NCBI RefSeq assembly: GCF_030646925.1
Contig: NZ_JAUSKL010000124.1
Coordinates: forward strand, 48,298 to 112,297
Reading direction: 5' to 3'
Source of the DNA: Candidatus Binatus sp.
GTDB taxonomy: Bacteria; Desulfobacterota; Binatia; Binatales; Binataceae
Length of the DNA stretch: 64,000 nt
Shown here: one piece after another, positions 1-29,450 of the stretch
How the letters are laid out: the number at the start of each line of letters is the position of its first letter
Numbering within the stretch: the first letter of the stretch is position 1
The notes under the pieces: model-generated
Database searches by the model: none
Told to the model about the DNA's origin: nothing
What the model saw: only the letters and a program-made list of their open reading frames with translations
Made by a program: the position numbers and the translations under genes

Positions 1-221
1 TTCATCAGATTCTCTGCGTGACGCATCTGCCGCAGATTGCCGCGTTCGCCGATCGGCACTTCGTGGTCGAAAAAGAAGAGCGCCGCGGCTCGACCAAAAG
101 CCGCGTGACGATGCTGGCCGAACCTGAGCGCACCGGCGAAATCGCGCGGATGCTCGGTGGCGAGGCCTCCGACAAGTTTCGCCGCGCCGCCAAGGAACTG
201 CTCGACCTCGCCCGCACCTGA
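1..221 (+). CDS. recN: DNA repair protein RecN, C-terminal end (partial, continues upstream of window)
   Basis: C-terminal motif ...EIARMLGGE...AAKELL typical of RecN; ORF runs off 5' window edge. Confidence 0.55.
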   Translation, partial: HQILCVTHLPQIAAFADRHFVVEKEERRGSTKSRVTMLAEPERTGEIARMLGGEASDKFRRAAKELLDLART

Positions 222-333
222 GGCGAGCGCTAGACCGTCGGTCTCAGGCTTATGCCGTCTTTAGAATCGCCACGATCTGAGGTCGGTTGACAGCCCGGCG
301 CGCATCCGATTAGCTGAAAAATCCGCATTCGGT

Positions 334-409
334 GGGGCTGTAGCTCAGTTGGGAGAGCGCCTGAATGGCATTCAGGAGGTCGACGGTTCGATCCCGTTCA
401 GCTCCACCA
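334..409 (+). tRNA. tRNA-Ala (anticodon GGC)
   Basis: Cloverleaf read directly: acceptor GGGGCTG/CAGCTCC, D-arm GCTC..GAGC, anticodon loop ATGGCAT, T-loop TTCGATC, encoded CCA. Confidence 0.9.
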
Positions 410-711
410 ATCAAATCAAGGCTTTTTCGGTTTCGGACAGAATTGGACAGGCCTTGTCTGAAAACTGTCCGAATTTGTCAAGAAAGATGGAAGTATCGCA
501 GCTTTGCGGCCATACTCTGGGCCATGGTCGGACGCCCTACGGAAAGCATGTACCGCGAACGATGGTTATCTTCGATACATGAAACGTGTGCGTTCATTCG
601 CTATTGTAGAGGCCTCACGACTCGGATAAGACCAATCCGTTCGAGATGTTTGACCCTGTGGCGCGCTTGGTTTCGGTTGGATAGAGTCTGCGTGCGATTT
701 CAAGTGAACTC

Positions 712-1389
712 ATGATGTCAGATCCAAATCGTCCAGATTACTTCTTCTCGGTTGCGTTGGTCGGGGCCATGAACCCTGCGATTCATCACTACGCATGGTA
801 TCTGCACGAGAACATTCTGAAGAAAGAGGAAGCTGACATCGCCGCGCAGAGCGGAGCAGGGGTCTGTACCGCCCAATTATCGCAACTTCAATTTGGTGCG
901 ATTCTGATCTTCTGCGATCCCATCCGATGGCAGATCTCGACGTCCGAGATTCAGGCTGTGGGTCGCATCGTGAAGATTGCGGACGATACATTCTCGGTGC
1001 TCAGACACACGCCGGTGTCGGCGTTTGGCTTTAACTTCAATCACCATCGATCTACGAGATTGCCGAAGGTCAACAACACCTTAGCAAGGATGGTGCGTAG
1101 TCTGCCCTTGGGGCTCATCTCCGAGGACAGAGAAGAGTCTGCCGGAAAGCTGAATTATCAGCACTCGGTTGGCGGAGGGCGGGTGATCACAGTTCAAATA
1201 GAACCGTCAGTGAGGGGCCCCGACCAAGTCTACGTGGCAGTAAATGTCGAGTATCGCATGACGGCCGCGGCGGGGGAATTCAAGGCTTTCGAACTCAAAC
1301 TAGAAGAGCGCTTCCCTGGAGATCGGAAATTTGCGGAACAGCAACTTGAGTTCATAGTGAAGGCTCTAAATAGCCTAGAGGCAAATTGA
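712..1389 (+). CDS. hypothetical protein (first gene of 3-gene operon next to tRNA-Ala)
   Basis: 225-aa ORF, lower GC than flanks, stop TGA abuts next ATG (1390); no domain recognised. Confidence 0.5.
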   Translation: MMSDPNRPDYFFSVALVGAMNPAIHHYAWYLHENILKKEEADIAAQSGAGVCTAQLSQLQFGAILIFCDPIRWQISTSEIQAVGRIVKIADDTFSVLRHTPVSAFGFNFNHHRSTRLPKVNNTLARMVRSLPLGLISEDREESAGKLNYQHSVGGGRVITVQIEPSVRGPDQVYVAVNVEYRMTAAAGEFKAFELKLEERFPGDRKFAEQQLEFIVKALNSLEAN

Positions 1390-2217
1390 ATGGCGACGCC
1401 TTGCTCTCTGCGAGAACCAACCGACCGGCAGGGCATCCTTCCGCCCCTCGTGCTCTCCTCAACGGCAACTCGAAGCGCGAATTCTGCCGGGCAAGTTGGA
1501 ACGTCTGAGCAATTCCAGGCTGACGCGACGGGAGAGCCCTTAAGCGAATACGCCCGCAAAAAAAGCGTACCGTTGATGGGTCGAGCGTCTGCGGCGCGGG
1601 AAGTCATAAGAGCGATCGAGGTGAGCATTAAGAGTATTTCGGCTGGGCATTCCGGAGAATTGGGTGCTATTGGCCAGACGCTGGGTCGGCCTGTGACTTT
1701 GATTGGGCGTCCCGAGTTAGCGGAGTGGTACGAAAGGCTGGGCCGTTGGGTCGGACCTTTCGGCACCCGGACTGCTCAGGCTGAGCTTGTTCGCACATGG
1801 CTTGAGACCGGCGAAGAAGGTGCTGCCTGGCTGGTCGGTCAACTTCTTTGCGAGCAGCACGCTGATGCAATTTCGGGCTCATCAAGAGTGCTGCTTCAGA
1901 TGCGAGGCGCAGCTGCACCGCATGTAGTTGCAGCACTCGCGATGAGCGCCCGTTCGGAAGCAGTGGTTCCAGCGGTGACGTTCCTGCGCATTGTAAGAGA
2001 TCTGGATGCCGAGTCGGTAGGGCCGTGGTTGCCACAAATTTCGGAGATCTTGCACCGTCTGGTGGATCACTTCGATAAAGATGTGCGGCTGGCTGCCTTT
2101 CACACTTGCATAGATCTCCTGCCCGTCGAACAGGCTAAGCGAGTCCTGGCGCACAGGAGGGCAAAGGAGGCCGATCCCGAGCTAGCGGAGCTTCTTGAAT
2201 CCTTCCTGCGTCAGTAA
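1390..2217 (+). CDS. hypothetical protein (second gene of operon)
   Basis: 275-aa ORF immediately following previous stop; helical/repeat-like composition; no recognised family. Confidence 0.5.
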   Translation: MATPCSLREPTDRQGILPPLVLSSTATRSANSAGQVGTSEQFQADATGEPLSEYARKKSVPLMGRASAAREVIRAIEVSIKSISAGHSGELGAIGQTLGRPVTLIGRPELAEWYERLGRWVGPFGTRTAQAELVRTWLETGEEGAAWLVGQLLCEQHADAISGSSRVLLQMRGAAAPHVVAALAMSARSEAVVPAVTFLRIVRDLDAESVGPWLPQISEILHRLVDHFDKDVRLAAFHTCIDLLPVEQAKRVLAHRRAKEADPELAELLESFLRQ

Positions 2218-2232
2218 GGTTCATGACCTTGG

Positions 2233-2736
2233 ATGTGGATGCGGGAGGCACAGACGCGCAACTCTTGGGATAACCGCGATCCCGCGAATCCGGCTCATCG
2301 AGAACAGGCCGAAAAAGATCTGTTACGAACTGGCGATAAGAAGGTCTCGTTCTTTCGAGTTTCCTCGTGCGACGATATCGAGCGCGTCGCGTATCTCTTC
2401 GCATTGTGCATCAAAGGAGGTCAAGACCGATTCGACTACATGCTGCTAGACGAGAGTCTTCACAGTGCGTTCCAATTCGTTCCAAAACAAGATGCTGAGC
2501 TACATCCGTATTTACGGCCTCGCCACGTAGAGCTGAACTTGGAGTACCGCAAGACTCTTGATGCATTCCTGGACCTAGCCCTTGGCAGTAACGCCACGCG
2601 CCGGTTTTATGAGCGTGAGGTCGTTTGCGCCTTCGAGGCTATGAGCGGATTGGAACGGAGGGAAATCCTGGACTTCCAAAAGCAGCCTGAAAGGTGGAGA
2701 AAGAGCCTGAGCCGTATTGCGCCAGCACCTTCCTGA
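2233..2736 (+). CDS. hypothetical protein (third gene of operon)
   Basis: 167-aa ORF 16 nt after previous stop, same strand, lower GC. Confidence 0.45.
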   Translation: MWMREAQTRNSWDNRDPANPAHREQAEKDLLRTGDKKVSFFRVSSCDDIERVAYLFALCIKGGQDRFDYMLLDESLHSAFQFVPKQDAELHPYLRPRHVELNLEYRKTLDAFLDLALGSNATRRFYEREVVCAFEAMSGLERREILDFQKQPERWRKSLSRIAPAPS

Positions 2737-2922
2737 ATCGCGTTAAAGCACTTTAGCTAGTTACACGCGCTCCCTGGGACGATAGCTGGACGCCCCCGCA
2801 GTACGGATGTAACCCACGTGGGCGGCTGAGTCCACGCTTATAGCTCGCTTAATACACAAACGTTTTTCTCGCGAAAGGGCGCGCGCAAGCTTGTGATTCG
2901 AGCGGGTAATGCCTAATTTGCG

Positions 2923-3333
2923 ATGAGCCGGTCGTTGAGCAATCCGATTTGGGGATGGCTGAGCCTCACGATCGCCGCGGTCTATTCCGTGATTTGGCCG
3001 GGATGGCGCGACGCGCATCCGGCGCCGCATCCGTTTGCGATCTGTTTCGTGCTGCGATGGTTTCACGCGATCACATGGATTTTGCTCGCAGCTTCATTCT
3101 TCATCCGATCGTCTATTGCGCCGTCGCGAACCACGCTCGCCAACGCGATCGCGCCCGCCGCGATGCTCTGTTACGTCGCGTTCATCGCCACCTTCGCATA
3201 TTTCCGCACGACCCAGGTTGGTCGAGAGCAACCTCCTCGATTTCGGACGAGACGCTCATTGTGCCGAAGCCGGGGACAAGCCAATCCCTGCGGGGTGTCT
3301 GAATGCGCAATCCTGGCAGCTCGACGCCGCTGA
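2923..3333 (+). CDS. small hydrophobic membrane protein, copy 1 (3' end diverged, reads through into Arg-rich tail)
   Basis: ORF with ~3 predicted TM segments (IWPGWRDAHP..FHAITWILLAASFFI..); body nearly identical to copy at 6369-6602; lacks the native stop seen in copy 2. Confidence 0.4.
   Translation: MSRSLSNPIWGWLSLTIAAVYSVIWPGWRDAHPAPHPFAICFVLRWFHAITWILLAASFFIRSSIAPSRTTLANAIAPAAMLCYVAFIATFAYFRTTQVGREQPPRFRTRRSLCRSRGQANPCGVSECAILAARRR
2941..3216. repeat. direct repeat copy 1 (~276 bp, ~90% identical to 6321-6596)
   Basis: Nucleotide alignment by eye: aatccgatttggggatggctgag...cgcacgaccca vs aatccgctctggggacggctgag...cgcacgaccca. Confidence 0.85.
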
Positions 3334-5651
3334 CGACGCGGTCGCGCGGCCTGACTAGCGAAGAAGCTCATCGGCGTCTTCTCGAGTCTGGCCCCAATGC
3401 CGTGACCGAGAAGAAACCACATCTAATTGTGGCGCTCATCGGTAAGTTCTGGGCTCCGGTTCCGTGGATGCTCGAAGTCACCGTCGTGCTCGAGCTTGCG
3501 CTTGGCAAGGTTCTTGAGGCGGCTGTCATTGCGGTGCTGCTGGTCTTCAATGCCTCACTGAGCCTGTTCCAGGAAACGCGCGCGCGCGGCGCGCTGGAGC
3601 TGCTGCAACAGCGGCTTGCCGTGCAGGCTAGGGTTCTGCGTGACGGCGTATGGGGTCTGATTCCAGCAGAGCAGATGGTCCCGGGTGATTTCGTTCACTT
3701 GCAAATGGGCGACCTTGTGCCAGCCGACGTCGGCATCCGCGACGGAGAGGTGTTGCTCGATCAATCGGCACTTACCGGTGAGTCGGTGCCGGTAGAAGCG
3801 GACCAGGGCAAGACTGCTTACGCCGGCTCGTTGGTTAAGCGTGGCGAGGCCAGCGGCGAGGTCACGGCGACTGGCCAGCGAACCTTTTTTGGAAGGACCG
3901 CCGAACTGGTTCGCTCAGCCAGGACGGTCAGCCACCTGCAAAGCATCATCTTCTCGATCGTGAAGTACTTGGTGGCGATGGACACGGCGCTGGCGGTCGC
4001 GGTCTTCTTGTACGCCGCGCTCGTCGGTATGCCTCTCGCCGATACGCTTCCATTCGTACTGATCCTGCTGGTGGCTTCGGTTCCGGTCGCGCTACCGGCC
4101 ACGTTCACTTTGGCAACTGCGCTCGGCGCGGTGGAATTGGCCAAGCGCGGTGTTCTCGTGACGCGTCTGTCGGCGATCGAGGAAGCGGCGGCGATGGACA
4201 TGTTGTGCAGCGATAAAACCGGAACGATCACCCAAAATCAGCTATCGCTGGTGGCGTTGCATTCATACGCGCCGTTCAGCGAACACGACCTGTTGCGGTT
4301 CGCCGCATATGCCAGCGACGAAGCGGGCCAGGACCCGATCGATCTCGCCGTTCTCGCTCGCGCCAAAGCTGAAGGCACGCTCTCGGCGCCGACTCATCGG
4401 CTCAAGTTCATTCCGTTTGAGCCAGCAAGCAAGCTTGCCGAAGCCATCGTTGGCCAGGACGGAAAAGAATTGCGCGCCCTAAAGGGTGCGCCTCAAGCGG
4501 TTGCCGCGCGGGTCGGACACACTACCGACATAGATGCCGACGTTGAGCGACTTTCAGCGGGAGGTTACCGCGTGCTCGCAGTTGCGGGTGGCGCCGACGG
4601 CAGCTTGCGCTTGATCGGACTCCTGGCGCTTCAGGATCCGCCGCGCGGGGATTCCAGGTCGTTGGTGGCAAGCCTGAACAAGTTGGGTGTTCGCGTCGTG
4701 ATGGTAACCGGAGACGGGCTCGCGACAGCTCGTGCAGTAGCTGCGCAGGTCGGGATCTCGGGCCGTGCCTGTTCGTCGCAGGATTTGCGCGAGAACATCG
4801 ATAAGGCGCTCGATTGCGCAGTCTTCGCCGGTGTCTTTCCCGAAGACAAGTTTCAGCTCGTGCGCGCCCTGCAGCAGGCGGGACATGTTGTCGGCATGAC
4901 TGGAGACGGAGTCAACGACGCCCCGGCGCTCAAGCAGGCTGAAGTTGGGATCGCGGTCGCCACCGCCACCGACGTGGCGAAAGCCTCGGCCAGCTTGGTG
5001 CTCACCAATCCCGGTCTCACTGACACCCTGGCCGCGGTCGAAAGCAGCCGGCGCATCTATCAGCGCATGCTGACCTACACGCTCAACAAGATCATCAAGA
5101 CCGTCGAGATTGGGCTCTTCCTCAGCGTCGGCGTGATTGTTACGCGCACCTTCATCATTACGCCGCTACTGATCGTAATGCTGCTGTTCACGAATGACTT
5201 CGTAACCATGTCGATTGCGACCGATCACGTATCCGCGTCCCCGATGCCGGATCGTTGGCACATCCGCCGTCTGATGCTGGCTGGAATGAGTCTCGGCAGT
5301 CTCATCCTGCTGCTGTCGTTTGGCTTGTTTTTCTGGGGGCGGGACCTTCTTCACCTGTCGCTTCTTCAACTGCAGACACTGGTCTTTGTCACACTCGTGT
5401 TCACAGGTCAGGGGATGGTCTATCTGGTGCGCGAGCGCCACCACTTCTGGAATTCTGCTCCAAGCCGATGGATGATTCTCAGCTCGATTATAGACGTGGG
5501 AGTGGTGTGTCTGATGTCGATGCGGGGCATTTTGATGGCGCCTCTGCCGGGTGCGGTGATCGCATCGGTGATTCTCGCGTGCGCGCTGTACCTGATCGCT
5601 CTGGACTTCCTGAAGGTCCCAATTTTGGCGCGCCTGATGTACACGTCGTGA
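3303..5651 (+). CDS. P-type ATPase, plasma-membrane H+-ATPase-like (P3A subfamily)
   Basis: DKTGTIT phosphorylation motif, TGES actuator motif, TGDGVNDAPALK hinge, 8-10 TM; N-terminus GLTSEEAHRRLLESGPN typical of P3A pumps. Confidence 0.9.
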   Translation: MRNPGSSTPLTTRSRGLTSEEAHRRLLESGPNAVTEKKPHLIVALIGKFWAPVPWMLEVTVVLELALGKVLEAAVIAVLLVFNASLSLFQETRARGALELLQQRLAVQARVLRDGVWGLIPAEQMVPGDFVHLQMGDLVPADVGIRDGEVLLDQSALTGESVPVEADQGKTAYAGSLVKRGEASGEVTATGQRTFFGRTAELVRSARTVSHLQSIIFSIVKYLVAMDTALAVAVFLYAALVGMPLADTLPFVLILLVASVPVALPATFTLATALGAVELAKRGVLVTRLSAIEEAAAMDMLCSDKTGTITQNQLSLVALHSYAPFSEHDLLRFAAYASDEAGQDPIDLAVLARAKAEGTLSAPTHRLKFIPFEPASKLAEAIVGQDGKELRALKGAPQAVAARVGHTTDIDADVERLSAGGYRVLAVAGGADGSLRLIGLLALQDPPRGDSRSLVASLNKLGVRVVMVTGDGLATARAVAAQVGISGRACSSQDLRENIDKALDCAVFAGVFPEDKFQLVRALQQAGHVVGMTGDGVNDAPALKQAEVGIAVATATDVAKASASLVLTNPGLTDTLAAVESSRRIYQRMLTYTLNKIIKTVEIGLFLSVGVIVTRTFIITPLLIVMLLFTNDFVTMSIATDHVSASPMPDRWHIRRLMLAGMSLGSLILLLSFGLFFWGRDLLHLSLLQLQTLVFVTLVFTGQGMVYLVRERHHFWNSAPSRWMILSSIIDVGVVCLMSMRGILMAPLPGAVIASVILACALYLIALDFLKVPILARLMYTS

Positions 5652-5717
5652 GGTTTGTCAGAAGCGCAAGTGCTTCCGGCCAGAGTCCCTATCACTCAAA
5701 ATAGCCAGATGGAACTA

Positions 5718-6266
5718 ATGATGAACAAGGTGCTGTTGGTTCTCGTCCTGATAGCAATTGCTCCTATCTCTTCAGCCTGGTCCGCAGGTCCCGACTTCAT
5801 CGTCTGCAAAAGCACCTATGCCTTGTGCACTACGGCGGAGTGCTCCCCGATAGCTGACAAGCCGGGATTCGTGTCATGTAACTGCAATGTTACGACCGGC
5901 TACTCTGCCGGACTGCGAGCCTGCGAAGAGAAAAACGCCAGCGAGGGCCGGTCGCTCAAATCGCGCTACCATCCAATCAATAGCTACGCGCGTTGCTCTA
6001 ACGATCGCCCCTGGGGATGGTGCCTGGACAGCCCCTGCGTGGTGGATAACAGCGACCCTTCAAAGGCCGCCTGTGCGTGTTCGGTGGTTAAGAATCAAGG
6101 AGATTACGTGATCGTCAACGATACCGGCTCCTACAATGAGTCCTCATGCACTACCGGACTCTATTCATCAGCGACCGTCGTGCAGCTAGATCAGGTCACC
6201 GATTTTCTGAAGACTCACGACACCCCGCTGCATCCAGTTCCTATGAAGATTTACACGGGCAAGTAG
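5718..6266 (+). CDS. secreted cysteine-rich protein of unknown function
   Basis: Start 4 nt after ATPase stop region; N-terminal signal peptide MMNKVLLVLVLIAIAPISSAWS; ~16 Cys; no family recognised. Confidence 0.6.
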   Translation: MMNKVLLVLVLIAIAPISSAWSAGPDFIVCKSTYALCTTAECSPIADKPGFVSCNCNVTTGYSAGLRACEEKNASEGRSLKSRYHPINSYARCSNDRPWGWCLDSPCVVDNSDPSKAACACSVVKNQGDYVIVNDTGSYNESSCTTGLYSSATVVQLDQVTDFLKTHDTPLHPVPMKIYTGK

Positions 6267-6320
6267 ATGCTCGCATGCTCGGGCAGGCTTTCGATGCCGA
6301 CGTGAACTGGTCCTTGGACC

Positions 6321-6596
6321 AATCCGCTCTGGGGACGGCTGAGTCACGCGATCGCTGTCATCTATTCCGTGATTTGGCCGGGATGGCGCGATGCGCATCC
6401 GTCGCCGCATCCGTTCGCGATCTATTTCGTGCTGCGATGGTTTCACGCGATCACCTGGATCGTGCTCGCAGCTTCGTTCTTCATCCGCTCGTCGATTGCG
6501 CCGTCGCGAATCACGCTCGCCAACGCGATCGCGCTCGCCGCGATGCTCTCTTACGTCGCGTTCATCGCCACCTTCGCGTACATCCGCACGACCCAT
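6321..6596. repeat. direct repeat copy 2 (partner of 2941-3216)
   Basis: see copy 1. Confidence 0.85.
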
Positions 6597-6602
6597 TCGT
6601 AA
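6369..6602 (+). CDS. small hydrophobic membrane protein, copy 2 (intact C-terminus ...IRTTHS-stop; start GTG/TTG uncertain)
   Basis: Paralogue of 2923-3333; upstream in-frame stop at ~6303 limits N-terminus. Confidence 0.45.
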   Translation: MIWPGWRDAHPSPHPFAIYFVLRWFHAITWIVLAASFFIRSSIAPSRITLANAIALAAMLSYVAFIATFAYIRTTHS

Positions 6603-6762
6603 CCGCCAACATTGACGGAGAGGCCAATTTGTCCGCATTCACGCTCGACAGGGTGCGATTCGGTTTCATCTATGACCCGTTGTGAAACATTAATGCAACA
6701 TATAAAGTATCTGAATGCGAGCTCAACATTCACCACTTAAGCCCCGAGTCGCAAGCCGACCA

Positions 6763-7101
6763 ATGGAGAGCGCAGTAGCACGGATTCTAGACGACCTCGA
6801 GCAGCGCGGGGGACTCAAGGGCTCCGATGTCGCGAACATCGTCAATGCGTCGCGGCCGACCGTGTCGCGATGGAAGAGCGGCAAAGCCTCGCCGCCGCTC
6901 GCAACTCAGACCATCATCGCCGACCTGCGCTATGTCGTCGATCGACTGTCTGACTTCTATACGCCATCCGAGACGCGACTATGGCTTCATGCGAAACATC
7001 AACTGCTGAACAACGAACGTGCGATCGATCTGATCATTGCGGACCGCACGCAGGAAGTTCTCGCCGTTATCGAACGCCTCGATGCCGGTGCTTACCTATG
7101 A
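6763..7101 (+). CDS. Xre-family / DUF2384 antitoxin of RES-Xre toxin-antitoxin pair
   Basis: HTH-like N-terminus plus C-terminal region typical of Xre/MbcA/ParS antitoxins; directly upstream of RES-domain gene. Confidence 0.7.
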   Translation: MESAVARILDDLEQRGGLKGSDVANIVNASRPTVSRWKSGKASPPLATQTIIADLRYVVDRLSDFYTPSETRLWLHAKHQLLNNERAIDLIIADRTQEVLAVIERLDAGAYL

Positions 7102-7121
7102 CCATCCAGGCTTGACCTGCC

Positions 7122-7667
7122 ATGCCGGGAGCACGGAAGCCGCGCGATCCCGCACTGCTCGACGCACTCGATGCCCTCGATAGAGTTCATTATGCCGGCG
7201 AAGCTTGGCGGGTTGTGCGCGACGGCCGGGATCCTCTGCAGGGAAATGCTTCCGGCGGACGCTGGGATCCCACGTTGTTTGACGTACTCTACACCTCCCT
7301 GGATCCGGATGGAGCCGTTGCAGAAGTTCACTTTCACCTGTCACGTCAGCCGGTCTTTCCGTCGAGGATCAGCTACCGACTGCATCGCATCAAAGTCAGG
7401 ACCGCGAAGACTCTCAGCCTTCCGGATTTAGACGCGATGGTTCCGCTTGGCGTCGATCCGGCCCGATACCGCGCGATCCTCTACGAGCCCACTCAGGCAA
7501 TCGGCGACGCCGCTTACTTCCTCGGTTTCGACAGTATCATCGCCCCGAATGCTCGCTGGTCATGCGACAACTTGATCGTATTCACCGATCAGCTCGCGCC
7601 CGCCGAGCTGGAAGTCATCGAGTCGACGGAAGTCAATTGGACCAAATGGCGGAAGAAGCTGAACTGA
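7122..7667 (+). CDS. RES-domain toxin (MbcT/ParT-like NAD-targeting toxin family)
   Basis: Conserved R (GGRWDP), E (AVAEVHFHL) and S (IIAPNARWS) positions of the RES domain; 181 aa. Confidence 0.8.
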   Translation: MPGARKPRDPALLDALDALDRVHYAGEAWRVVRDGRDPLQGNASGGRWDPTLFDVLYTSLDPDGAVAEVHFHLSRQPVFPSRISYRLHRIKVRTAKTLSLPDLDAMVPLGVDPARYRAILYEPTQAIGDAAYFLGFDSIIAPNARWSCDNLIVFTDQLAPAELEVIESTEVNWTKWRKKLN

Positions 7668-7775
7668 TCGTATTCGCCGACGTGTGATTTTGCGCGGCGA
7701 TCGACGCTTTGACTTTTGCGCTGCGATGACGCATGGCTTGTCGGGTATGCTCCATCAGCAGCGGAGGTAAGAACG

Positions 7776-8144
7776 ATGATCGACCACGTCGGTTTTAAGG
7801 TTTCTGACTTCCAGAAGAGCAAGAAGTTCTATGAAGCCGCGCTGAAGTGCCTCGGTTACGGCGTCGTCTTCGGCGACGACGCGCAAAAGTTCGCCGGCTT
7901 CGGCGGCAAGGACGGTCCGGATTTCTGGATCACCCAGGGAACGGCCGGGGCGCCGGCGCATGTCGCGCTGCGAGCCTCCGATCGCGCGACCGTCGGACGA
8001 TTTCACGCCGACGCCCTCGCCGCCGGCGGGCGCGACAACGGCAAGCCGGGCCCGCGTCCCGAATACACGCCGACCTATTACGGCGCGTTCGTGCTCGATC
8101 CCGACGGCAACAACGTCGAGGTGGTCTGCCACGCGAGCGCGTAA
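7776..8144 (+). CDS. VOC family protein (glyoxalase/bleomycin-resistance/dioxygenase fold)
   Basis: MIDHVGFKVSDFQKSKKFYEAAL... typical VOC N-terminus; GGAGG RBS upstream. Confidence 0.8.
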   Translation: MIDHVGFKVSDFQKSKKFYEAALKCLGYGVVFGDDAQKFAGFGGKDGPDFWITQGTAGAPAHVALRASDRATVGRFHADALAAGGRDNGKPGPRPEYTPTYYGAFVLDPDGNNVEVVCHASA

Positions 8145-9968: not shown

Positions 9969-11097
9969 TTAAGTCGGCATCGTATCGGCGTCACCTTTGC
10001 GCACGCCCATCAGGTACGCCTCGATAAAATCATCGATCGCGCCGTCCAGCACCGCATCCGTGTTGCCGATCTCGACGCCGGTGCGATGGTCCTTCACCAT
10101 CCGATACGGCTGCAGCACGTACGATCGAATCTGGCTGCCCCACGCGATGTCTTTCTTGTCCTTGCTGAACTTCTCGAGTTCTTCCTTTTTCTTGCGCTGC
10201 TCAAGCTCGAACAAACGTGCGCGCAAAATCTTCATCGCCATCGCGCGATTCTTATGCTGCGAGCGCTCGTTCTGGCACGTCACCACGATGCCGCTCGGGA
10301 GGTGCGTGAAGCGCACCGCCGAGTCAGTCTTGTTAACGTGTTGTCCACCCGCCCCCGACGCGCGAAACGTATCGATCCGCAAATCAGCCGGATTGATGAT
10401 GATTTCGATCGTGTCGTCCACCGCTGGAAAAACGAACACCGACGCAAACGACGTATGCCGCCGCGCGTTGGCGTCGAAGGGCGAGATTCGCACCAGCCGA
10501 TGAATCCCGGCCTCGGCCTTGAGATAGCCGTACGCGAAATCTCCTTCCACCGTCACAGTCGCACTCTTGATTCCCGCGCCGTCGCCGGGTTGCAGGTCCG
10601 CGATTTCGGTGCTGAAGCCGCGGCGCTCGGCCCATCGCAGGTAGAGCCGCAGCAGCATCTCGGCCCAATCCTGCGCCTCCATGCCGCCGGCGCCGGGATG
10701 GATCGATACGATCGCGCCGAGCCGATCGTGCTCGCCGCTCAGCATCAGGCGTAGTTCCTGACGCTCGAGCTCGATGCGCGACGCGTCGAGCGCCGACGCG
10801 GTTTCGCGCGCGGCTTCGGAGTCGTCGGCGCCCTCTTCCTCCGCCATCTGGAGAAACACCCGCGCCTCGTCGAGCTTGTCGCGCAGCATCTTGTAGCCCG
10901 TGAGCTGCGCGCGCAGTTGTTCCTGCTCTTTCAGCGACGCCTGCGCTTTTTCGCGGTCGTCCCAGAAATCCTGTTTGGCGGATTGTTCGACGAGCTGGGT
11001 CTGGCGGGTGGTCAGTGCGGGGACGTCAAAGACGCCTCCCGAGCTTATCGGCGCGATCATCGAACTCGGCAAGCTGCTGCTTCATGTCGCTGAGCAT
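9969..11097 (-). CDS. prfB: peptide chain release factor 2 with programmed +1 frameshift (join 11097..11029 and 11027..9969)
   Basis: Frame-0 ORF from ATG at 11097 (MLSDMKQQLAEFDDRADKLGRRL) ends at CTT TGA C preceded by GGGAGG; +1 frame continues DVPALTT...; GGQ motif (SGAGGQHVNKT) and SPF motif downstream. Confidence 0.9.
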
Positions 11098-11198
11098 TGG
11101 AAATTTCACCTCACCTCGCGCCGGGATTAATCGGCGCCTGAGGATTCATTGTGACACAAGCGCGCGCTCCGATTAATGGGGCCTGGCTCCGCTCCTTT

Positions 11199-12383
11199 TT
11201 ACTTCGGGATTGGCTTTTGCAAAATGACGAGCACGTTTTTCCCTCGTTGCGGCACGCGTTGTCTTCCAACAAGCCCCTGCAACCGCACCTTTCCGGCGCT
11301 TATCCAATCACGAATCCAGTCTTTGAGGTCACTTTCCCAGACCATCGGTACCGATGTTGTTATTTGCCAAAGAATGTCGTGCGGAACGCGGCCTTTCTCA
11401 GCCAGCTCAGCTTCGACTTTTGCCAGTCCGATCTCGATAAATCGTTGCCGCAACGAATCGTAATAATCCGAATCGTTCATAACACCGGCGGAAAACAGTT
11501 CCCTATTTGCACTGCGATCGATTCGCCTGCGCTGACGCGCCGCAGCTCGAGCTGATTCCATTGCCTGCATGGCCATCTTTTCCGATTCCTTGAAGACTGC
11601 CATACCCTCCGGGTGGCGCGTTGCGCAGATCAAATGGAAATGGGTTCGATTGATCTCGGGATGCAATACAATAGCGCTACTAACAAAATCGAAACCGCCA
11701 ACGCGCTTTACGTTCTCGGAATAGAGTCTGACCGCCTCCTCATCGCGATCCACGCCGGTCAAACCTTCCAACCCCTTCCGGTAGGTTTCTGAACCAAACA
11801 GCGCTGTGAAGCTGTCCTGTGTATCTTTTTGAGGAGAATCCAAAAAACGGCGTATGTGACCGGTCATGAAGTTAATCAAAACTTCAACTGGATGAAGCTT
11901 CAAGATCGGTTCGATCGTGTTCATTGCGAAGCCCGTCCAGCCTGTCGGATCGATAAATACAAACGGAAAGGATCCTGACCCGCCATCCCTCACGAAGCTG
12001 AGAATCTCCCCGACGGCTCCCTCGAGTTCTCCGTTCAGCGTTTTGACGTCGATATCCGAAATGCTTGCGGTAAATTTCTGGAGTTGTTCGTACGCTCCTG
12101 GATCTCTTTCGAGGAAGAAGCAACGCAATCGTAACACGTGTCCGCGCTTCAGTTGCGTTGCTCGAGCCTTTCTCAATTCTTCCAAAGCGATTGAGAAGGA
12201 GCTATCGCTTAGCTTGCTCGATTGCACATTCCAAGGGCCGGCGAAACAGTCTATGTAGGTTATGCAAGCCCACTTAGACCCAACCTTGTGAGCAAAGCGC
12301 TCAAGGTACTTTCGAAGAATGAGATGCTTTACAAGGGTTTGTTCCCGACCAATGTATAGATCTTCCTCGCTCAAATTCCCCAC
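11199..12383 (-). CDS. three-Cys-motif partner protein TcmP-like (partner of Gp37/Gp68-family protein)
   Basis: 394-aa protein with YIDCFAGPW and FVFIDPTGW motifs; adjacency to DUF5131 protein matches the TcmP context; lower GC. Confidence 0.55.
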   Translation of the reverse strand: MGNLSEEDLYIGREQTLVKHLILRKYLERFAHKVGSKWACITYIDCFAGPWNVQSSKLSDSSFSIALEELRKARATQLKRGHVLRLRCFFLERDPGAYEQLQKFTASISDIDVKTLNGELEGAVGEILSFVRDGGSGSFPFVFIDPTGWTGFAMNTIEPILKLHPVEVLINFMTGHIRRFLDSPQKDTQDSFTALFGSETYRKGLEGLTGVDRDEEAVRLYSENVKRVGGFDFVSSAIVLHPEINRTHFHLICATRHPEGMAVFKESEKMAMQAMESARAAARQRRRIDRSANRELFSAGVMNDSDYYDSLRQRFIEIGLAKVEAELAEKGRVPHDILWQITTSVPMVWESDLKDWIRDWISAGKVRLQGLVGRQRVPQRGKNVLVILQKPIPK

Positions 12384-12429: not shown

Positions 12430-13182
12430 CTAATTTGGGTTCTTCCACTTGTGCGTCGTGGGAAACTCCCCATAAGTCTTTCCACGCAGCCGGCGTCCAG
12501 TCTCATGCTTTCGCACGCCGCCCCATTGCTTGAAAAAGAATGGAACACCGAACTGTCGACATTGACCTAAAAGAGATAGAACCCACTTCTCTTCCATAGG
12601 CCTTGCCTTCGGTCCGCTCTCGCCACCGACAATCACCCAGTCGATTCCGCTAAGGTCGAGCGTGCCGAGATCTTCCAGCAGAGGCTCTACCGAAAGAAAT
12701 CTGACGCAAGCAGGAGTCTCCAATAGAGCCTTAATCCGAGGCAAGCCGTATTTTCGATCTTCAACGCTCACTCCGAACCAAACATTTGGTAACTCTCCCA
12801 ACCAAGCGAGTGGCCCTGAAATGAGCTCCTTCATTCTCGTGTGGCGCTTCGTAAGAACTTGGTAGACATGCCAATTCGCCTCTTCCATGACGCGGCCGAC
12901 ATCCCCTATGTAGCTAATCGGCACGCCTTCTTGGAAGAGATCACTCATCGAGTTTACAAATATCATACGCGGAGTTAGCCACCTCAAAGGCTCGCGCAAC
13001 TTTTCTGGTACAAGTCGCAGATCAAAGCCCTGTTCGAAGGGATGTCCCCTCACCCCGCGGAACCGCTGGGCAAATCGCTCGGCGTAGCAGTTCTTGCATC
13101 CTGGACTTACTTTCACGCACCCTCTAATCGGATTCCAGGTAGCATCCGTCCATTCGATGGTACTCTTGACGCTCATTGTCAA
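12430..13182 (-). CDS. phage Gp37/Gp68-family protein (DUF5131) with three-Cys motif
   Basis: N-terminal TIEWTDATWNPIRGCVKVSPGCKNCYA (Cys-x6-Cys-x2-Cys) characteristic of the family; 250 aa. Confidence 0.65.
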   Translation of the reverse strand: MTMSVKSTIEWTDATWNPIRGCVKVSPGCKNCYAERFAQRFRGVRGHPFEQGFDLRLVPEKLREPLRWLTPRMIFVNSMSDLFQEGVPISYIGDVGRVMEEANWHVYQVLTKRHTRMKELISGPLAWLGELPNVWFGVSVEDRKYGLPRIKALLETPACVRFLSVEPLLEDLGTLDLSGIDWVIVGGESGPKARPMEEKWVLSLLGQCRQFGVPFFFKQWGGVRKHETGRRLRGKTYGEFPTTHKWKNPN

Positions 13183-13388
13183 ACCCTCGAGCGAAACTTA
13201 GGCGAAACTGGTCTGAAGTTCAACCGCCATTTCGCGAGCAGGCGGCTGCTGACGTTGATGCACCTGCACGCACATGACAATTTTCGCCGCAATAATGAGA
13301 GGTCACATTCCGTCGCGAGGCCCCGATTAATGGGGTGTCCGCCCGCCCGCCGGTGCGCCTGTATATCTGGGCGGCGCGAAATGCCGAG

Positions 13389-13420
13389 TGGCTCCCCGGG
13401 CCGGATTCGAACCAGCGACA
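13389..13420. repeat. 32-nt direct copy of the 3' end of tRNA-Asn (att-like island boundary)
   Basis: tggctccccgggccggattcgaaccagcgaca identical to 17399-17430. Confidence 0.8.
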
Positions 13421-14215: not shown

Positions 14216-15736
14216 CTATCTGGGATCGAATGCCGCAGCCAGATCGCGATTTCCTCCTTGGGCCGCCCGTTCTTGTTCGAGCCTGGCCAGGCGCGCTTCG
14301 AGACGTGCGATCTTCTCAACCTGCCGGCGCAGTTGTTCTATCTGCGCTGCTTGCTCCTTGTTCTTCCTGGTTTCTTTCTGTAGTTCGTTCAGCAGCATCG
14401 AGGTAAGCATCGAGTAGCGCACCGACTGGACCTTGCCATCGTCATCGTGGACCACCAGTTCCGGATAGACACGATAGACTTCCTCGGCCACCAGCCCATA
14501 CTGCTTGATAGCTTGCGGATCGTCCTTGTAGCGGAATGTCACTGGATGCAGCTTCATCAGACCTTCGGTCGAGTCTCCCTTATCGTTAATGTCGCGCTTG
14601 TAGCGAGCAGACGAGATCACTACTCCGAGCTTGCCGCTGCCATTAACTACAACATCGCTGCCTGTTACCGCCGTGCCCGCGATGCCCGCAATAAAAGTCT
14701 GCGTCTGCGTGCCCTGTAATCCGATTCGTATAGTCCCGGTGTCAGTCGAAAGACCCAAGCTCGCGATGTGGATGTTGTTCTTACCGGTGGTCAGGTTGAA
14801 GCCCGCCTGGAACCCGAGCGCGGCATTGGTTTGGCCGGTAGTGTTGTTAAACAGCGCCTGCAGTCCCACAGCCGTGTTGAAGCTGCCGGTTGTGTTCTTA
14901 AGCAGAGCTTGCGCTCCGTCGGCCGTGTTCTGCACGGCGGTGGTGTTGCTAAAGAGAGCCTTCGCGCCGGTGGCCGTGTTGTTGTTGCCCGAGGTGTTAT
15001 TGAACAGCGCCGACGACCCGCCCGCGGTGTTGCTGACGCCGATCGTGTTCGATGTCAGCGCCGAGTCTCCGCTGGCGGTGTTGAGGTTACCGGTAGTGTT
15101 GCTTCGGAGCGCGCTCGCGCCGTCAGCGGCATTGTTGCCGCCCGTGGTGTTGTTAAACAGCGCAAACGCGCCGGTCGCAGTGTTGCTGACTCCCGTCGTG
15201 TTTAATATCAGCGCCGAGGCTCCGTCAGCGGTATTGAAGATACCGGTAGTATTGAATCTCAGCGCCTGGGATCCGGTCCCGGTGTTGCTCGCACCCGAGG
15301 TGTTGAACTGCAAGGCGTCCAGCCCGGTCGCGGTATTGTCGGAACCGGTCGTGTTAGTTCGAAGGCTGTTGAGCCCGGTGGCAGAATTGCCGCCTCCAGT
15401 GGTGTTGGCCGCCAGCGCGCGGCGGCCGATGGCGGTGTTGGCGCCGCCGGAGGTGTTGGAGCTAAGCGCGGATTCGCCCGTAGCCGTGTTGTTGTTGCCG
15501 CCAACATTTCCCTTGAGGGCGCTCGCTCCACAGGCGGTATTGCCACCGCCGGTGGTATCGGCATTGAGGGCGTTGAATCCGAGCGCAGTGTTGTTGGTGC
15601 CCGTGGTGACGCTCGCCAAGGCGCCGCTTCCCAATTTGGTGTTGCTCTGGGCCAGCACGACAGCGGGGCTTGAGATCGCCGCCGCCAACACGACGATGAG
15701 GGTAGCAACGAAACGCAAACTTGAGTTCTTCATCAC
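14216..15736 (-). CDS. secreted repeat protein with C-terminal peptidase S74 / tail-fibre intramolecular chaperone domain and coiled-coil
   Basis: Signal peptide, ~25 tandem 14-15 aa repeats (NTTGxxNTAxGxxAL), then IASLG..ARYKRDI..LHPVTFRYK..GLVAEEVYRVYPELV chaperone-of-endosialidase motif, then heptad-like C-terminus. Confidence 0.7.
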   Translation of the reverse strand: MMKNSSLRFVATLIVVLAAAISSPAVVLAQSNTKLGSGALASVTTGTNNTALGFNALNADTTGGGNTACGASALKGNVGGNNNTATGESALSSNTSGGANTAIGRRALAANTTGGGNSATGLNSLRTNTTGSDNTATGLDALQFNTSGASNTGTGSQALRFNTTGIFNTADGASALILNTTGVSNTATGAFALFNNTTGGNNAADGASALRSNTTGNLNTASGDSALTSNTIGVSNTAGGSSALFNNTSGNNNTATGAKALFSNTTAVQNTADGAQALLKNTTGSFNTAVGLQALFNNTTGQTNAALGFQAGFNLTTGKNNIHIASLGLSTDTGTIRIGLQGTQTQTFIAGIAGTAVTGSDVVVNGSGKLGVVISSARYKRDINDKGDSTEGLMKLHPVTFRYKDDPQAIKQYGLVAEEVYRVYPELVVHDDDGKVQSVRYSMLTSMLLNELQKETRKNKEQAAQIEQLRRQVEKIARLEARLARLEQERAAQGGNRDLAAAFDPR

Positions 15737-17134: not shown

Positions 17135-17398
17135 GAAACGGTGGGGCGTCGAGCAAACCGGTTAACCTCCCCTGTCCCACAGTCGGCTTGACGCCAAGCC
17201 TTCTAATACTGGATATCAGCCGACAGATCAGAGTGCCGCGCATCCTGCCCCGTTGGCCCATCCATGAGATTGAGAAGGCGGCGTGCAGCGGGCGTCTTGT
17301 CTTGGGGGACCCCACCAAAGTCCCCACAGTTGGCAAGTGACAGTAAGCCCGTTCTGAACTGAGGGGCCAAATGATCTTCGCCAATGCTAGAGTTTTAG

Positions 17399-17474
17399 TG
17401 GCTCCCCGGGCCGGATTCGAACCAGCGACATGACGGTTAACAGCCGTCCGCTCTACCGACTGAGCTACCGGGGA
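17399..17474 (-). tRNA. tRNA-Asn (anticodon GTT)
   Basis: rc reads TCCCCGG TA GCTC AGTCGGTA GAGC G GACGG CTGTTAA CCGTC ATGTC GCTGG TTCGAAT CCGGC CCGGGGA G CCA. Confidence 0.9.
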
Positions 17475-26146: not shown

Positions 26147-26221
26147 GGGTTTACCTCCACATACCGGTCGTTTAGCGCAATCTTGGGCGGAACGAAAGCC
26201 CCGCGTGAGAGGAAAGAAACG

Positions 26222-26333
26222 GAATTCGAAACCCCTCACGGGTTTCGAGCTTCCTGGGGCATCGCGAAGCCGACTTCGGGCCGCAGGGCCGAATCGCAAT
26301 AAGATTAAGATGCGCGCTACGCGCTGTTAATAG
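26222..26333 (+). repeat. structured intergenic repeat element family A, copy 1 (three hairpins)
   Basis: cgaaacccctcacgggtttcg hairpin, gccgacttcgggccgcagggccgaatcg, gcgcgctacgcgc hairpin; ~95% identical to copy 2. Confidence 0.6.
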
Positions 26334-28148: not shown

Positions 28149-28195
28149 TGTTTAATCGAAGCGTCGTGGCAGAGGAAGGAGCGAGGAAAAGAGAA

Positions 28196-28305
28196 GAGTT
28201 CGAAACCCCTCACGGGTTTCGAGCTTCCTGGGGCGACGCGAAGCCGACTTCGGGCCGCAGGGCCGAATCGCGATAAGATAAGATGCGCGCTACGCGCTGT
28301 TAGTA
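28196..28305 (+). repeat. structured intergenic repeat element family A, copy 2
   Basis: see copy 1. Confidence 0.6.
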
Positions 28306-29369: not shown

Positions 29370-29382
29370 AGAAGGAGAAGAG

Positions 29383-29450
29383 ATCCGAAACCTCACGAGG
29401 TTTCGGGCTTCCTGGGGCAAAGAAGATGCGCGCTACGCGCTGTGAATAAG
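29383..29450 (+). repeat. structured intergenic repeat family A, copy 3 (shorter; hairpin 1 with compensatory substitutions, hairpin 3 conserved)
   Basis: ccgaaacctcacgaggtttcgg vs cgaaacccctcacgggtttcg; ttcctggggc and gcgcgctacgcgc conserved. Confidence 0.5.

Follow-up and report, generated by a model that had tools for sequence, protein, structure and literature searches.

TAC (toxin-antitoxin-chaperone) systems, exemplified by HigB1-HigA1-SecB^TA of M. tuberculosis, are three-gene operons in which the third gene encodes an accessory protein (PMC5105189, PMC9098466). What this protein recognises on the antitoxin is a short extension at one of its ends, and the pair can be moved from one toxin-antitoxin (TA) family to another (PMC5105189, PMC9098466). 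Panacea/PanA and the NetFlax network represent hyperpromiscuous TA partner domains (PMC8832971, PMC10440598). Panacea is the antitoxin domain of two-gene modules, and partner swapping has brought this one conserved family together with numerous toxin and effector domains that are unrelated to each other. The Xre/ParS/MbcA-RES system (PF09722 + PF08808) is in its canonical form also a two-gene module, and classical type II antitoxins usually carry a DNA-binding domain for autoregulation. In several defence systems, the effector is a metallo-β-lactamase (MBL)-fold protein (Lamassu LmuA variants, DRT-associated MBL, PDC-M48 and Avs1).

Here, we describe a three-gene operon found in a 64-kb window of DNA (the whole stretch analysed, 64,000 nucleotides from Candidatus Binatus sp.). 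Its three co-oriented ORFs, referred to as A, B and C, have exactly the coordinates given in the original prediction, in which they were regarded as a horizontally acquired operon of unknown proteins:

712-1389, + strand: gene A (225 aa; TGA stop codon at 1387-1389)
1390-2217, + strand: gene B (275 aa; its ATG abuts the TGA of gene A, TGAATG)
2233-2736, + strand: gene C (167 aa; starts 15 nt after gene B)

Comparison with described systems

The trio and the TAC systems are both three-gene operons. In both cases, a constant, in A putative, accessory protein is joined with varied TA pairs, and the unrelated gene-2 proteins encoded next to A share a short terminal motif and, in some cases, also an N-terminal module. 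However, A is not SecB-like (no Pfam match, and no SecB among the top 50 Foldseek matches in PDB), and it is encoded by the first gene of the operon, whereas the TAC accessory protein is encoded by the third. The conserved tail of the gene-2 proteins is N-terminal (Met-Ala/Pro-...), in contrast to the C-terminal ChAD in TAC (PMC5105189). Furthermore, B and C of the window are not HigBA, MqsRA or HicAB, and the chaperone-like role of A is putative.

Exactly the Xre/ParS/MbcA-RES pair is present downstream of A in one locus (L014), and the N-terminal half of the antitoxin in this locus resembles that of gene-2 proteins of the HEAT type. The window itself holds a separate pair of this kind (6715-7667), which is independent of the trio. 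Nevertheless, the toxin-binding domain ParS_C is replaced by HEAT-like repeats in B, a RES domain is missing from C, and the canonical Xre-RES module has no A-like partner. As in the case of Panacea, a single conserved family occurs together with a variety of unrelated toxins or effectors, but A is a separate third protein, the neutraliser-like gene 2 beside A is itself variable, and no sequence relation of Panacea to the A family was detected with Pfam. The third gene of a subset of A-family operons, here called type II, matches the effectors of the MBL-type defence systems (E 3e-10 to 1e-8), but the window trio contains no MBL gene; SMC-like LmuB, reverse transcriptase and STAND NTPase are all absent, and neither A nor the ~190-aa middle protein of the type II operons has a PADLOC match. 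The trio also differs from classical type II TA systems in that no recognisable toxin domain (RES, PIN, RelE/ParE, MazF or HEPN) is present in A, B or C, and B has no DNA-binding domain. The A family was not found to be described in the literature on HEAT repeats in defence, tripartite TA systems, promiscuous antitoxins, or TBP-like proteins in conflict systems.

Conservation of the operon

Homologs of all three proteins were found in sequence searches, and the A-B-C synteny is conserved in at least 13 contigs (the window and L001, L002, L003, L004, L013, L019, L020, L021, L022, L023, L047 and L051). Between the window and L004, dN/dS is approximately 0.23 for B and 0.12 for C. Therefore, A, B and C are not chance ORFs but genuine genes that are under purifying selection and inherited together, as expected if the operon is a functional unit, as originally proposed. 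None of the three proteins matches a housekeeping family, and the three genes co-occur in other genomes, but the neighbourhoods are not consistently defence islands; peptidase S41, LeuA and an oxidoreductase are encoded among the neighbouring genes. The GenBank annotation of B comprises only 198 aa; the 275-aa form is backed by an N-terminus that is conserved among orthologs, and the start of C at 2233 (Met-Trp) is also kept in orthologs. In sequence, B and C diverge faster than A.

The chromosomal site of the operon

The operon is located downstream of a tRNA gene:

334-409, + strand: tRNA-Ala(GGC) (ARAGORN; Rfam tRNA at 64 bits)
421-711, + strand: left edge of the island and leader of the operon (similarity to L049 ends at approximately 421; 50.2% GC)

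The 3' end of recN (18-221) lies directly upstream of the tRNA gene. This ORF was identified by alignment to a gene of L049 that encodes SMC_N/AAA_23, and the fragment itself has no Pfam match. The NAD kinase-recN-tRNA-Ala(GGC) junction of the window is also found in a related genome (L008/L049), the alignment of L049 with the window breaks approximately 12 nt past the tRNA gene, and a different island carrying a different subtype of the same operon follows in L008/L049. Judging from this comparison, tRNA-Ala(GGC) flanks the insertion point on its conserved, chromosomal side. The location next to a tRNA gene and the difference in content at the same site are features of tRNA-linked islands. 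Other copies of the operon are likewise associated with tRNA or recombinase genes: the gene order is tRNA-SeC, A-B-C-type operon and tyrosine integrase in L009, and tRNA-Glu, serine recombinase and trio in L002, and the trio of L001 is cargo of an integrase/excisionase element. The break of homology 12 nt past the tRNA gene, together with the location of these copies, indicates that the trio is cargo of a mobile island, in support of the proposed horizontal acquisition at a tRNA hot-spot. Gene A begins 302 bp past the tRNA gene, in agreement with the predicted ~300 bp.

The original prediction also stated that the GC content of the three genes is roughly 10 points lower than that of the flanks. 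The trio is indeed lower than its surroundings, but the difference is approximately 5 points on average (7-8 points for A and C): the GC content is 55.3% in the trio (52.5% in A, 58.7% in B and 53.6% in C), 60.4% in the window, 61% in the recN/tRNA flank and 57.6% in the region 421-7700. The GC3 values of the trio (58-61%) are 12-18 points lower than those of the ATPase and PanE genes (72-77%). Thus, both GC and GC3 deviate as expected of a tRNA-linked island. Further accessory material was correctly predicted to follow the trio: a P-type ATPase cassette, bracketed by a 279-nt repeat, and the Xre/ParS-RES pair are located downstream.

The leader contains an inverted repeat (432-440/465-473). 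A promoter scan detected no sigma-70 consensus promoter in 421-711, the leader sequence is not conserved in L001 or L003, and no conserved operator was found in it. The tRNA was the single match in an Rfam scan of positions 1-8000. No direct repeat of the 3' end of tRNA-Ala was found in the 64-kb window, and no integrase was found among 10 selected ORFs scanned in its first ~20 kb; the far end of the island may fall outside what is recognisable in the window.

Protein A and its family

The A family comprises 1,918 cluster representatives at E<=1e-3 and shows a patchy distribution over Binatota-like lineages, Planctomycetota, Acidobacteriota and other lineages. The hosts of the A-family modules are all uncultured. 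A has no match in Pfam, NCBIfam, PADLOC, PHROG or the PDB sequences, no match was obtained when 77 family members were compared with NCBIfam and Pfam, and all members are named 'hypothetical protein' in their sources. In addition, no match was detected when A was compared by tblastn with phage records (50,697) and plasmid records (72,556), or in a search of the IMG/VR viral contigs with the A-family profile. Two signature motifs were recognised in the family alignments:

760-801, + strand: motif 1 of A, V-G-A-M-N-P-A-I-H-H-Y-A-W-Y (residues 17-30)
1006-1038, + strand: motif 2 of A, H-T-P-V-S-A-F-G-F-N-F (residues 99-109)

In motif 1, H25 and Y30 are invariant in the 77 members, and G18, M20, N21, P22, H26, P27 and W29 are conserved in at least 90% of them. 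In motif 2, T100 is invariant, with P101 and N108 close to it in conservation; a further invariant residue is C68 (nt 913-915). With these His-His/Cys/Thr residues, A may be an enzyme.

The AF2 model of A (pLDDT 84.7, pTM 0.82) predicts a soluble α/β fold composed of two β-α-β(3-4)-α repeats, which may be read as TBP-like or helix-grip-like. Motif 1 is located in the model in the loop and short helices that follow strand 1. A Foldseek search of the model against PDB yielded only weak matches, to S-adenosylmethionine decarboxylase (AdoMetDC) and to Bet v 1/START proteins (TM<=0.36), and these were rejected as a basis for the function of A because of the low TM-scores. In BFVD, one unnamed viral protein was matched (TM 0.59-0.64). 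In a prophage-like contig, the gene of one A homolog comes after a tape-measure gene, and that of another is located near a terminase-like gene. The former raised the possibility that A is a phage tail component, which was rejected, since phage structural genes are absent from the neighbourhood of most copies.

Proteins B and C

B, a putative neutraliser or adaptor, starts with a Met-Ala-Thr tail and has an N-terminal part of ~100 aa that is poorly conserved and rich in small and polar residues; a central motif rich in Trp follows, and the C-terminal part is made of HEAT-like repeats:

1714-1830, + strand: central motif of B, E-W-Y-x-R-L-G-x-W-x-G-P-x-G-T-R ... W ... G..G..W (residues ~109-147; ortholog alignments)
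1852-2175, + strand: HEAT-like repeat region of B (residues ~155-262; profile matches)

Within the central motif, Y114, L117, W137, G141, G144 and W147 are invariant or nearly invariant in two alignments. B has no significant match in Pfam, NCBIfam, PADLOC or PHROGs and contains neither an HTH nor a ParS_C domain; the HEAT signal of the window protein alone is below detection with Pfam. A profile of 10 B orthologs matched αRep/HEAT-like repeat proteins in PDB (E 3.3e-5 and 6.3e-4) in several repeat registers, and orthologs of B match HEAT_2 (E 6.9e-6 and 9e-4) as well as HEAT_PBS. The better of the two HEAT_2 matches, that of L013, reaches 26.7 bits and is just below the cut-off of 27.7 bits. 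B is therefore placed among the HEAT/PBS-lyase HEAT-like repeat proteins, which are characterised by tandem helical hairpin repeats of ~30-40 aa. HEAT_2 and HEAT_PBS were also matched by a subtype-3 gene-2 protein, and HEAT_2 faintly by the gene-2 protein of L051. The earlier statement that the three proteins have no recognisable domain thus holds for A and C but not for B, whose HEAT-like region is detected by profiles only; in the profile searches, B was the only one of the three to give PDB matches. A phycobilin-lyase-like function, which might be read from the PBS-type HEAT repeats, was rejected because no lyase was matched and the host is inferred to be a non-phototroph.

C has no match in Pfam, NCBIfam, PDB, PADLOC or PHROGs, and no recurrent family emerged when 24 proteins encoded by third genes or partner genes were scanned. 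The AF2 model of C, at a pLDDT of 39 (4 sequences), was too poor to be used. Pfam includes AbiJ_NTD models, and the possibility that C is an AbiJ-NTD4 domain was rejected in view of the missing Pfam match. AbiJ-NTD4 has been reported in fusion with HEAT repeats (PMC3710099). The conserved features of C are an N-terminal W..RDP...A..D, S-F-F-R-V (residues 39-43) and R97-H98 (nt 2521-2526); in 8 orthologs, R4, W12, A26, S39, L90, L94, R97, H98, L103 and W155 are invariant. The C-like third genes of three operon subtypes are collinear, with an S-F-F-R-V-like strand and a His in register (E 9e-4 and 3e-3, compared with 0.14-0.26 for reversed and unrelated controls), a homology that is weak in terms of HH probabilities (10-31%).

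Interchangeable partners in A-family operons

The comparison of A-family loci showed that the two genes following A are interchangeable pairs. The combination of A with a HEAT protein and a small protein occurs in three sequence subtypes. In the type II operons (8 loci), A is followed by the ~190-aa protein and a defence-type nuclease of the MBL fold that matches the PADLOC models of LmuA (3e-10), DRT-associated MBL, PDC-M48B and Avs1a. In L014, gene 2 matches Xre_MbcA_ParS_C (24.6 bits; cut-off, 24.5) and gene 3 matches RES (1.9e-16), and in L006, A is followed by a small protein and then by a PIN protein encoded by gene 3 (2.9e-6); the ParS_C-RES pair and PIN were seen in one locus each. An AbiEii-like AAA_21/AAA_15 ATPase gene is located near A in L015. 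Because the loci were gathered by patterns derived from the motifs of A, and some of them are close relatives, these partner counts are not independent. In PADLOC-DB v2.0, no defence model matched A, B or C at E<=1, and none matched the subtype 2 and 3 homologs; solely the MBL gene of the type II operons matches effector models.

In nearly all loci, gene 2 directly adjoins A, with a gap from the stop codon of A that is mostly between -17 and +10 nt, and its product nearly always begins with Met-Ala/Pro and continues with hydrophobic residues. Among 33 loci, 21 have Ala and 7 have Pro as residue 2, compared with backgrounds of 22% for Ala and 31% for Ala or Pro (binomial p = 4e-7 and 2e-10, respectively, uncorrected for relatedness). 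This start could partly stem from translational-coupling constraints or shared ancestry rather than from an interaction motif. The similarity extends beyond the tail in L014, where the N-terminal ~90-110 aa of the antitoxin align with subtype-2 HEAT proteins (BLAST E 1e-4). The gene-2 protein is more acidic than the gene-3 protein in 14 of 14 operons, with a small contrast between B and C of the window (pI 6.19 versus 6.91).

Possible function of the trio

Because genes of the A family precede known TA pairs elsewhere, the trio is probably a three-part module of the TA or abortive-infection type. More specifically, we regard the trio as a complete version of a mobile module that tRNA-targeting islands carry as cargo, and see about an even chance that it acts as a tripartite TA-like conflict system, of the abortive-infection or addiction type, with C as the effector, B as the neutraliser and A as the accessory protein. 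In such a system, C would be a growth-inhibiting effector with the invariant Arg-His as its candidate catalytic site, and the HEAT repeats of B would hold C inactive, in the place that ParS_C takes towards RES. A may bind the conserved N-terminal part of B and serve as a constant accessory partner (a sensor, stabiliser or chaperone-like protein) on which the continued neutralisation of C by B would depend, for instance once a phage has infected the cell or the element has been lost. This functional assignment draws throughout on guilt by association with paralogous operons, and could as well hold as fail; A, B and C themselves matched no toxin, antitoxin or defence profile. The defence role suggested earlier for the trio remains plausible in that paralogous operons carry RES, PIN and defence-type MBL proteins, although no known defence model matched the trio.

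A strict anti-phage defence system, as opposed to an addiction module, overlaps mechanistically with the TA-like conflict system but differs from it in biological role and trigger. The HEAT repeats of B or a conserved pocket of A would sense a phage protein or metabolite, C would execute abortive infection, and MBL nuclease, RES, PIN or membrane proteins would be the executors in the sister operons. The matches of the MBL partner to models for the effectors of Lamassu, DRT, Avs and PDC-M48 systems, the exchange of effectors around a constant component with B and C diverging faster than A, the presence of the modules in mobile islands, the AbiEii-like ATPase near A and the A homologs next to tape-measure and terminase-like genes are all in line with such a role. 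However, the PADLOC models match none of A, B and C, and the neighbourhoods are not consistently defence islands; we thus regard this possibility as a minority one, though one to be taken seriously. An enzymatic role of A is less probable still. A catalytic or metal site would be made up of His25/His26, Cys68, Thr100 and Asn108, and the module would be an enzyme-controlled switch in which A modifies or processes the N-terminus of the gene-2 protein (Ala/Pro after Met removal) or makes or degrades a small-molecule signal. The invariance of polar, catalytic-type residues over 77 diverse members and the conservation of residue 2 of the gene-2 proteins as Ala or Pro are consistent with this idea. 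The best PDB fold matches of A, though weak, point the same way: they are to S-adenosylmethionine decarboxylase, which processes itself, depends on His and Cys and has an α/β sandwich in duplicate. However, the TM-scores (only 0.22-0.36, at a probability of 0.97-1.0) are too low for claiming a shared fold, and no enzyme family was matched by sequence.

We find it rather improbable that the trio is a non-conflict stress, regulatory or ligand-handling module that hitch-hikes on islands, composed of a helix-grip/START-like binder, a HEAT scaffold and a small partner. If so, nothing about the trio could be learnt from distant A homologs whose operons include toxin genes. The weak fold matches of A do include Bet v 1/START/SRPBCC ligand-binding proteins, C has no toxin signature, and the island in the window also holds transport genes (P-type ATPase). 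Against this speak the tight coupling of A with gene 2 and the N-terminal motif common to the HEAT-type and ParS_C/RES-type operons, the patchy, island-borne distribution across Binatota-like lineages, Planctomycetota, Acidobacteriota and others, and the rapid divergence of B and C.

Implications

Returning to the TA-like conflict system, a bolder proposal, which we put forward only tentatively, is that A represents a new widespread class of constant third component for TA and abortive-infection modules. As a soluble α/β double-repeat protein, it would recognise a short N-terminal Met-Ala/Pro-hydrophobic tail, together with an adjoining module, on otherwise unrelated neutralisers and gate the release of interchangeable effectors (C-type Arg-His proteins, RES, PIN, MBL nuclease and membrane proteins). 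With similar reserve, this might be considered either a counterpart of chaperone addiction that works through the N-terminus and without SecB, or a new type of subunit for sensing the trigger.

If this is true, a family of ~1,900 clusters without an entry in Pfam, NCBIfam or PADLOC would be a common subunit of modular three-gene conflict systems, and such systems would travel on tRNA-targeting islands of poorly studied soil and sediment phyla (Binatota-like lineages, Planctomycetota and Acidobacteriota). This would provide a new accessory-component architecture for the biology of TA systems and phage defence, with C as a candidate new small toxin with an invariant Arg-His and with HEAT repeats serving as a toxin-neutralising or sensing domain. 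It would also allow better annotation of thousands of 'hypothetical proteins'.

Organization of the A-B-C operon

Three genes, designated A, B and C, lie in the same orientation 3' of tRNA-Ala(GGC). The gene that ends just before this tRNA aligns with an SMC_N/AAA_23 (recN-type) gene found in a related genome.

334-409, tRNA-Ala(GGC)
712-1389, gene A (225 aa)
1390-2217, gene B (275 aa); its ATG abuts the TGA of A
2233-2736, gene C (167 aa), after a 15-nt gap

These coordinates agree with the original prediction of three packed, co-oriented ORFs behind the tRNA. A, B and C are genuine genes: homologs were found for each of the three, the A-B-C order recurs elsewhere, and B and C have dN/dS values of ~0.23 and ~0.12, respectively, between the window and a second trio locus (L004). 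The window lies on a contig of a Candidatus Binatus MAG, identified through 100% identity to the GenBank genes Q7S58_21285 and Q7S58_21290. The 198-aa GenBank call for B is too short, since orthologs keep the N-terminus of the 275-aa form, and C may lack annotation in that record, because the one database copy of it (P0011) belongs to a Logan assembly and not to NCBI. The predicted GC deficit is real, but its size is ~5 points overall (55.3% in the trio versus 60.4% in the window) and 7-8 points for A and C, rather than roughly 10; third-position GC is 58-61% in the trio versus 72-77% in neighbouring genes.

Using HMMs built from the three families, we detected the full A-B-C set in 12 further loci (L001-L004, L013, L019-L023, L047 and L051), complete wherever the contig was long enough, and the trio is therefore a conserved unit. 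An IS element cuts the C gene in L002.

Genomic context and mobility

The contexts of the trio and its relatives are mobile. In L001, a tyrosine integrase, an HTH_17 excisionase-like gene and a DUF3854 protein are encoded upstream of the trio; L002 has the order tRNA-Glu, serine recombinase, trio and IS elements; and in L009 an operon lies between tRNA-SeC and a tyrosine integrase. The NAD kinase-recN-tRNA-Ala(GGC) junction of the window is shared by related contigs L008/L049, where nucleotide similarity ends ~12 nt past the tRNA and a different island (SSB, SLT, HTH_36, HTH_17) with another operon subtype follows. Because the same junction carries a different island there, the tRNA-Ala site is a recurrent insertion point, with the trio in the variable part. 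No further copy of the tRNA-Ala 3' end was found in the window and no integrase among the window ORFs scanned; the island is either degraded or bounded by a far end that is not recognisable. Together with the recombinases near some of the other copies, the shared junction supports the proposed horizontal acquisition at a tRNA hot-spot, and the conserved synteny and the dN/dS values support a functional module. The accessory material suspected downstream was also found, including a P-type ATPase cassette and a Xre/ParS-RES pair, and extends to about 7.7 kb.

Several other features of the window were recorded.

2937-3215 and 6317-6595, 279-nt direct repeat (90% identity), a duplicated piece of a small ORF resembling a membrane protein (2923-3333, 6369-6602)
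3303-5651, P-type ATPase, and 5655-6266, Cys-rich 203-aa ORF, both bracketed by this repeat
6715-7101, Xre/ParS-type antitoxin (Xre_MbcA_ParS_C, weak, E 2e-4)
7122-7667, RES toxin (E 1.8e-20)
9969-11072, RF-2 (prfB-like)
12430-13182, minus, DUF5131 protein (E 4e-95)
13387-13420 and 17397-17430, perfect 34-nt direct repeat
14216-15736, minus, 506-aa ORF
17399-17474, minus, tRNA-Asn(GTT)
26209-26305, 28183-28279 and 29372-29418, ~97-nt intergenic repeat family
21654 and 26530, related 68-nt repeats

The 279-nt repeat suggests insertion or duplication of a cassette. The Xre/ParS-RES genes form a separate, canonical two-gene pair 4 kb downstream of the trio. The 34-nt repeat corresponds to the 3' half of tRNA-Asn, with its other copy 4 kb from the tRNA, and resembles the attL/attR ends of a small insertion; the 506-aa ORF inside it is tail-fibre-like, combining repeats of 51-nt period with an endosialidase chaperone domain (Peptidase_S74). 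Between RF-2 and this insertion, the DUF5131 gene, of a phage Gp37/Gp68-type family, adjoins an unannotated 394-aa ORF. The ~97-nt repeats, with a hairpin-like core (…GAAACCCCTCACGGGTTTC…), may be REP-like elements.

Proteins A, B and C

A word-indexed search with A returned only 8 relatives, and an exhaustive profile search 1,918 cluster representatives at E<=1e-3 (222 at E<=1e-30). Source names in the family are 'hypothetical protein', none of the 77 members sampled matches Pfam or NCBIfam, and we found no description of the family in the literature. H25, Y30, C68, L97 and T100 are invariant, and conservation reaches at least 90% at G18, M20, N21, P22, H26, P27, W29, W73, F94, P101 and N108; given its invariant His, Cys and Thr residues, A could also be an enzyme. 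A confident AlphaFold2 model (pLDDT 84.7, pTM 0.82) has the topology β-α-β4-α followed by β-α-β3-α, which we interpret as two copies of an α/β unit of TBP-like or helix-grip type. It had no strong match in the PDB (AdoMetDC and Bet v 1/START at TM<=0.36), and the only decent structural match was an unnamed viral protein (TM 0.59-0.64). A evolves most slowly of the three: identities of A, C and B are 58, 48 and 39% between the window and L003, and 51, 37 and 28% between the window and L001.

The N-terminal ~100 residues of B are weakly conserved and rich in small and polar residues. A Trp-rich motif (EWYxRLGxWxGPxGTR…W…G..G..W) is also conserved in B, and in a 10-sequence profile its C-terminal region matches αRep/HEAT-like repeat proteins (E 3e-5 and 6e-4); B orthologs match Pfam HEAT_2 and HEAT_PBS. 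Domain searches with C detected no domain and structure prediction gave no usable model; W12, S39 (in S-F-F-R-V) and the invariant R97-H98 are conserved. The view that none of the proteins has a recognisable domain thus holds for A and C, but not for the C-terminus of B.

Operon classes in the A family

A genome and metagenome scan with A motifs, a sampling biased by these motifs and including related contigs, yielded 42 further loci in Planctomycetota, 'delta proteobacterium' MAGs, Acidobacteriota, an FCB-group MAG and a gammaproteobacterium. In nearly all sufficiently long loci, two more same-strand genes (gene 2 and gene 3, in the positions of B and C) follow A. Clustering and domain scans gave the following classes.

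Operon classes by partner genes of A (gene 2; gene 3; occurrence)
Type I-1 (window's type): HEAT protein; small C-like protein; 13 contigs
Type I-2: HEAT protein; small C-like protein; 4 contigs
Type I-3: HEAT protein; small C-like protein; 5 contigs
Type II: ~190-aa protein; MBL-fold protein; 8 contigs
L014: ParS_C-type antitoxin; RES toxin; 1 locus
L006: 156-aa protein; PIN toxin (E 2.9e-6); 1 locus
L053: two proteins with hydrophobic, membrane-like segments (judged by eye); 1 locus
Other classes: unannotated partners; several loci

The C-like proteins of the three subtypes align collinearly (E 9e-4 and 3e-3, with 0.14-0.26 in controls), with a strand motif and a His in register, and are tentatively homologous. 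In type II (L016, L017, L018 and L040-L045; e.g. L041, 3412-5722), the ~190-aa protein matches phrog_29493 and the MBL domain of the ~370-aa partner matches PADLOC effector models (LmuA, 3e-10; DRT-associated MBL, 6e-8; PDC-M48B; Avs1a); this operon resembles a candidate defence system of its own, so far undescribed. The clearest link to a classical TA pair is L014 (9788-13263), where an IS4-family transposase gene (10331-11656) splits the A homolog and the downstream genes encode Xre_MbcA_ParS_C (24.6 bits, cut-off 24.5) and RES (E 1.9e-16). In L053 (676-2489), genes for a 254-aa protein, hydrophobic at its C-terminus, and for a 111-aa protein containing hydrophobic segments come after the A homolog; judged by eye, this may be a membrane-acting effector variant. 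The A homolog of L048 (7788-11319), with a 58-aa N-terminal extension, directly follows a PhageMin_Tail tape-measure gene on a contig that also encodes VapE and may occupy a prophage moron position; its 167-aa partner matches none of the partner classes.

Several features tie A to gene 2. The A stop and the gene 2 start are a few nucleotides apart in almost every locus. Of 33 loci, 21 encode Ala and 7 encode Pro as residue 2 of gene 2 (background, 22% Ala and 31% Ala-or-Pro; binomial p = 4e-7 and 2e-10, ignoring kinship of the loci), followed by hydrophobic or β-branched residues, a start pattern common to partner classes without other similarity. The N-terminal ~90-110 residues of the L014 antitoxin resemble subtype-2 HEAT proteins (BLAST E 1e-4) and share 'LVxWSxYGT[DE]' with them, while the C-terminal halves differ. 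In each of the 14 operons compared, gene 3 encodes a less acidic protein than gene 2.

Functional interpretation

Across the family, A is constant, the middle protein combines a shared A-proximal part with an exchangeable distal domain, and the third protein is exchangeable and, where recognisable, a toxin (RES, PIN) or defence-type nuclease. This pattern is characteristic of polymorphic toxin-antitoxin or abortive-infection systems. The closest functional precedent is TAC, in which a dedicated SecB-like chaperone binds the antitoxin at its short ChAD tail, and chaperone and tail together are transferable between TA families (PMC5105189, PMC9098466). The trio is not a TAC member, however, because A is not SecB-like and is encoded first, and the shared tail of gene 2 is N-terminal. 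Partner promiscuity also recalls Panacea/NetFlax, but there the promiscuous domain is the antitoxin itself (PMC8832971, PMC10440598). A Xre-RES identity was rejected for the trio, as C has no RES domain and B no ParS_C domain, and the trio matches none of the PADLOC systems.

Judged by association with paralogous operons, some of them single loci, a tripartite TA-like conflict module has about an even chance of being the correct reading of the trio; pooled with its rival, a strictly anti-phage system, a conflict module of either kind is quite probable. Individual roles, assigned by position and analogy, are less secure than the conflict-module reading: C would be the effector in the window, B would neutralise it through its HEAT repeats, and A would be the constant accessory partner acting on the N-terminal part of B. 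The description that fits the trio best is a TA-like or defence module of three parts, with the unannotated A family at its centre.
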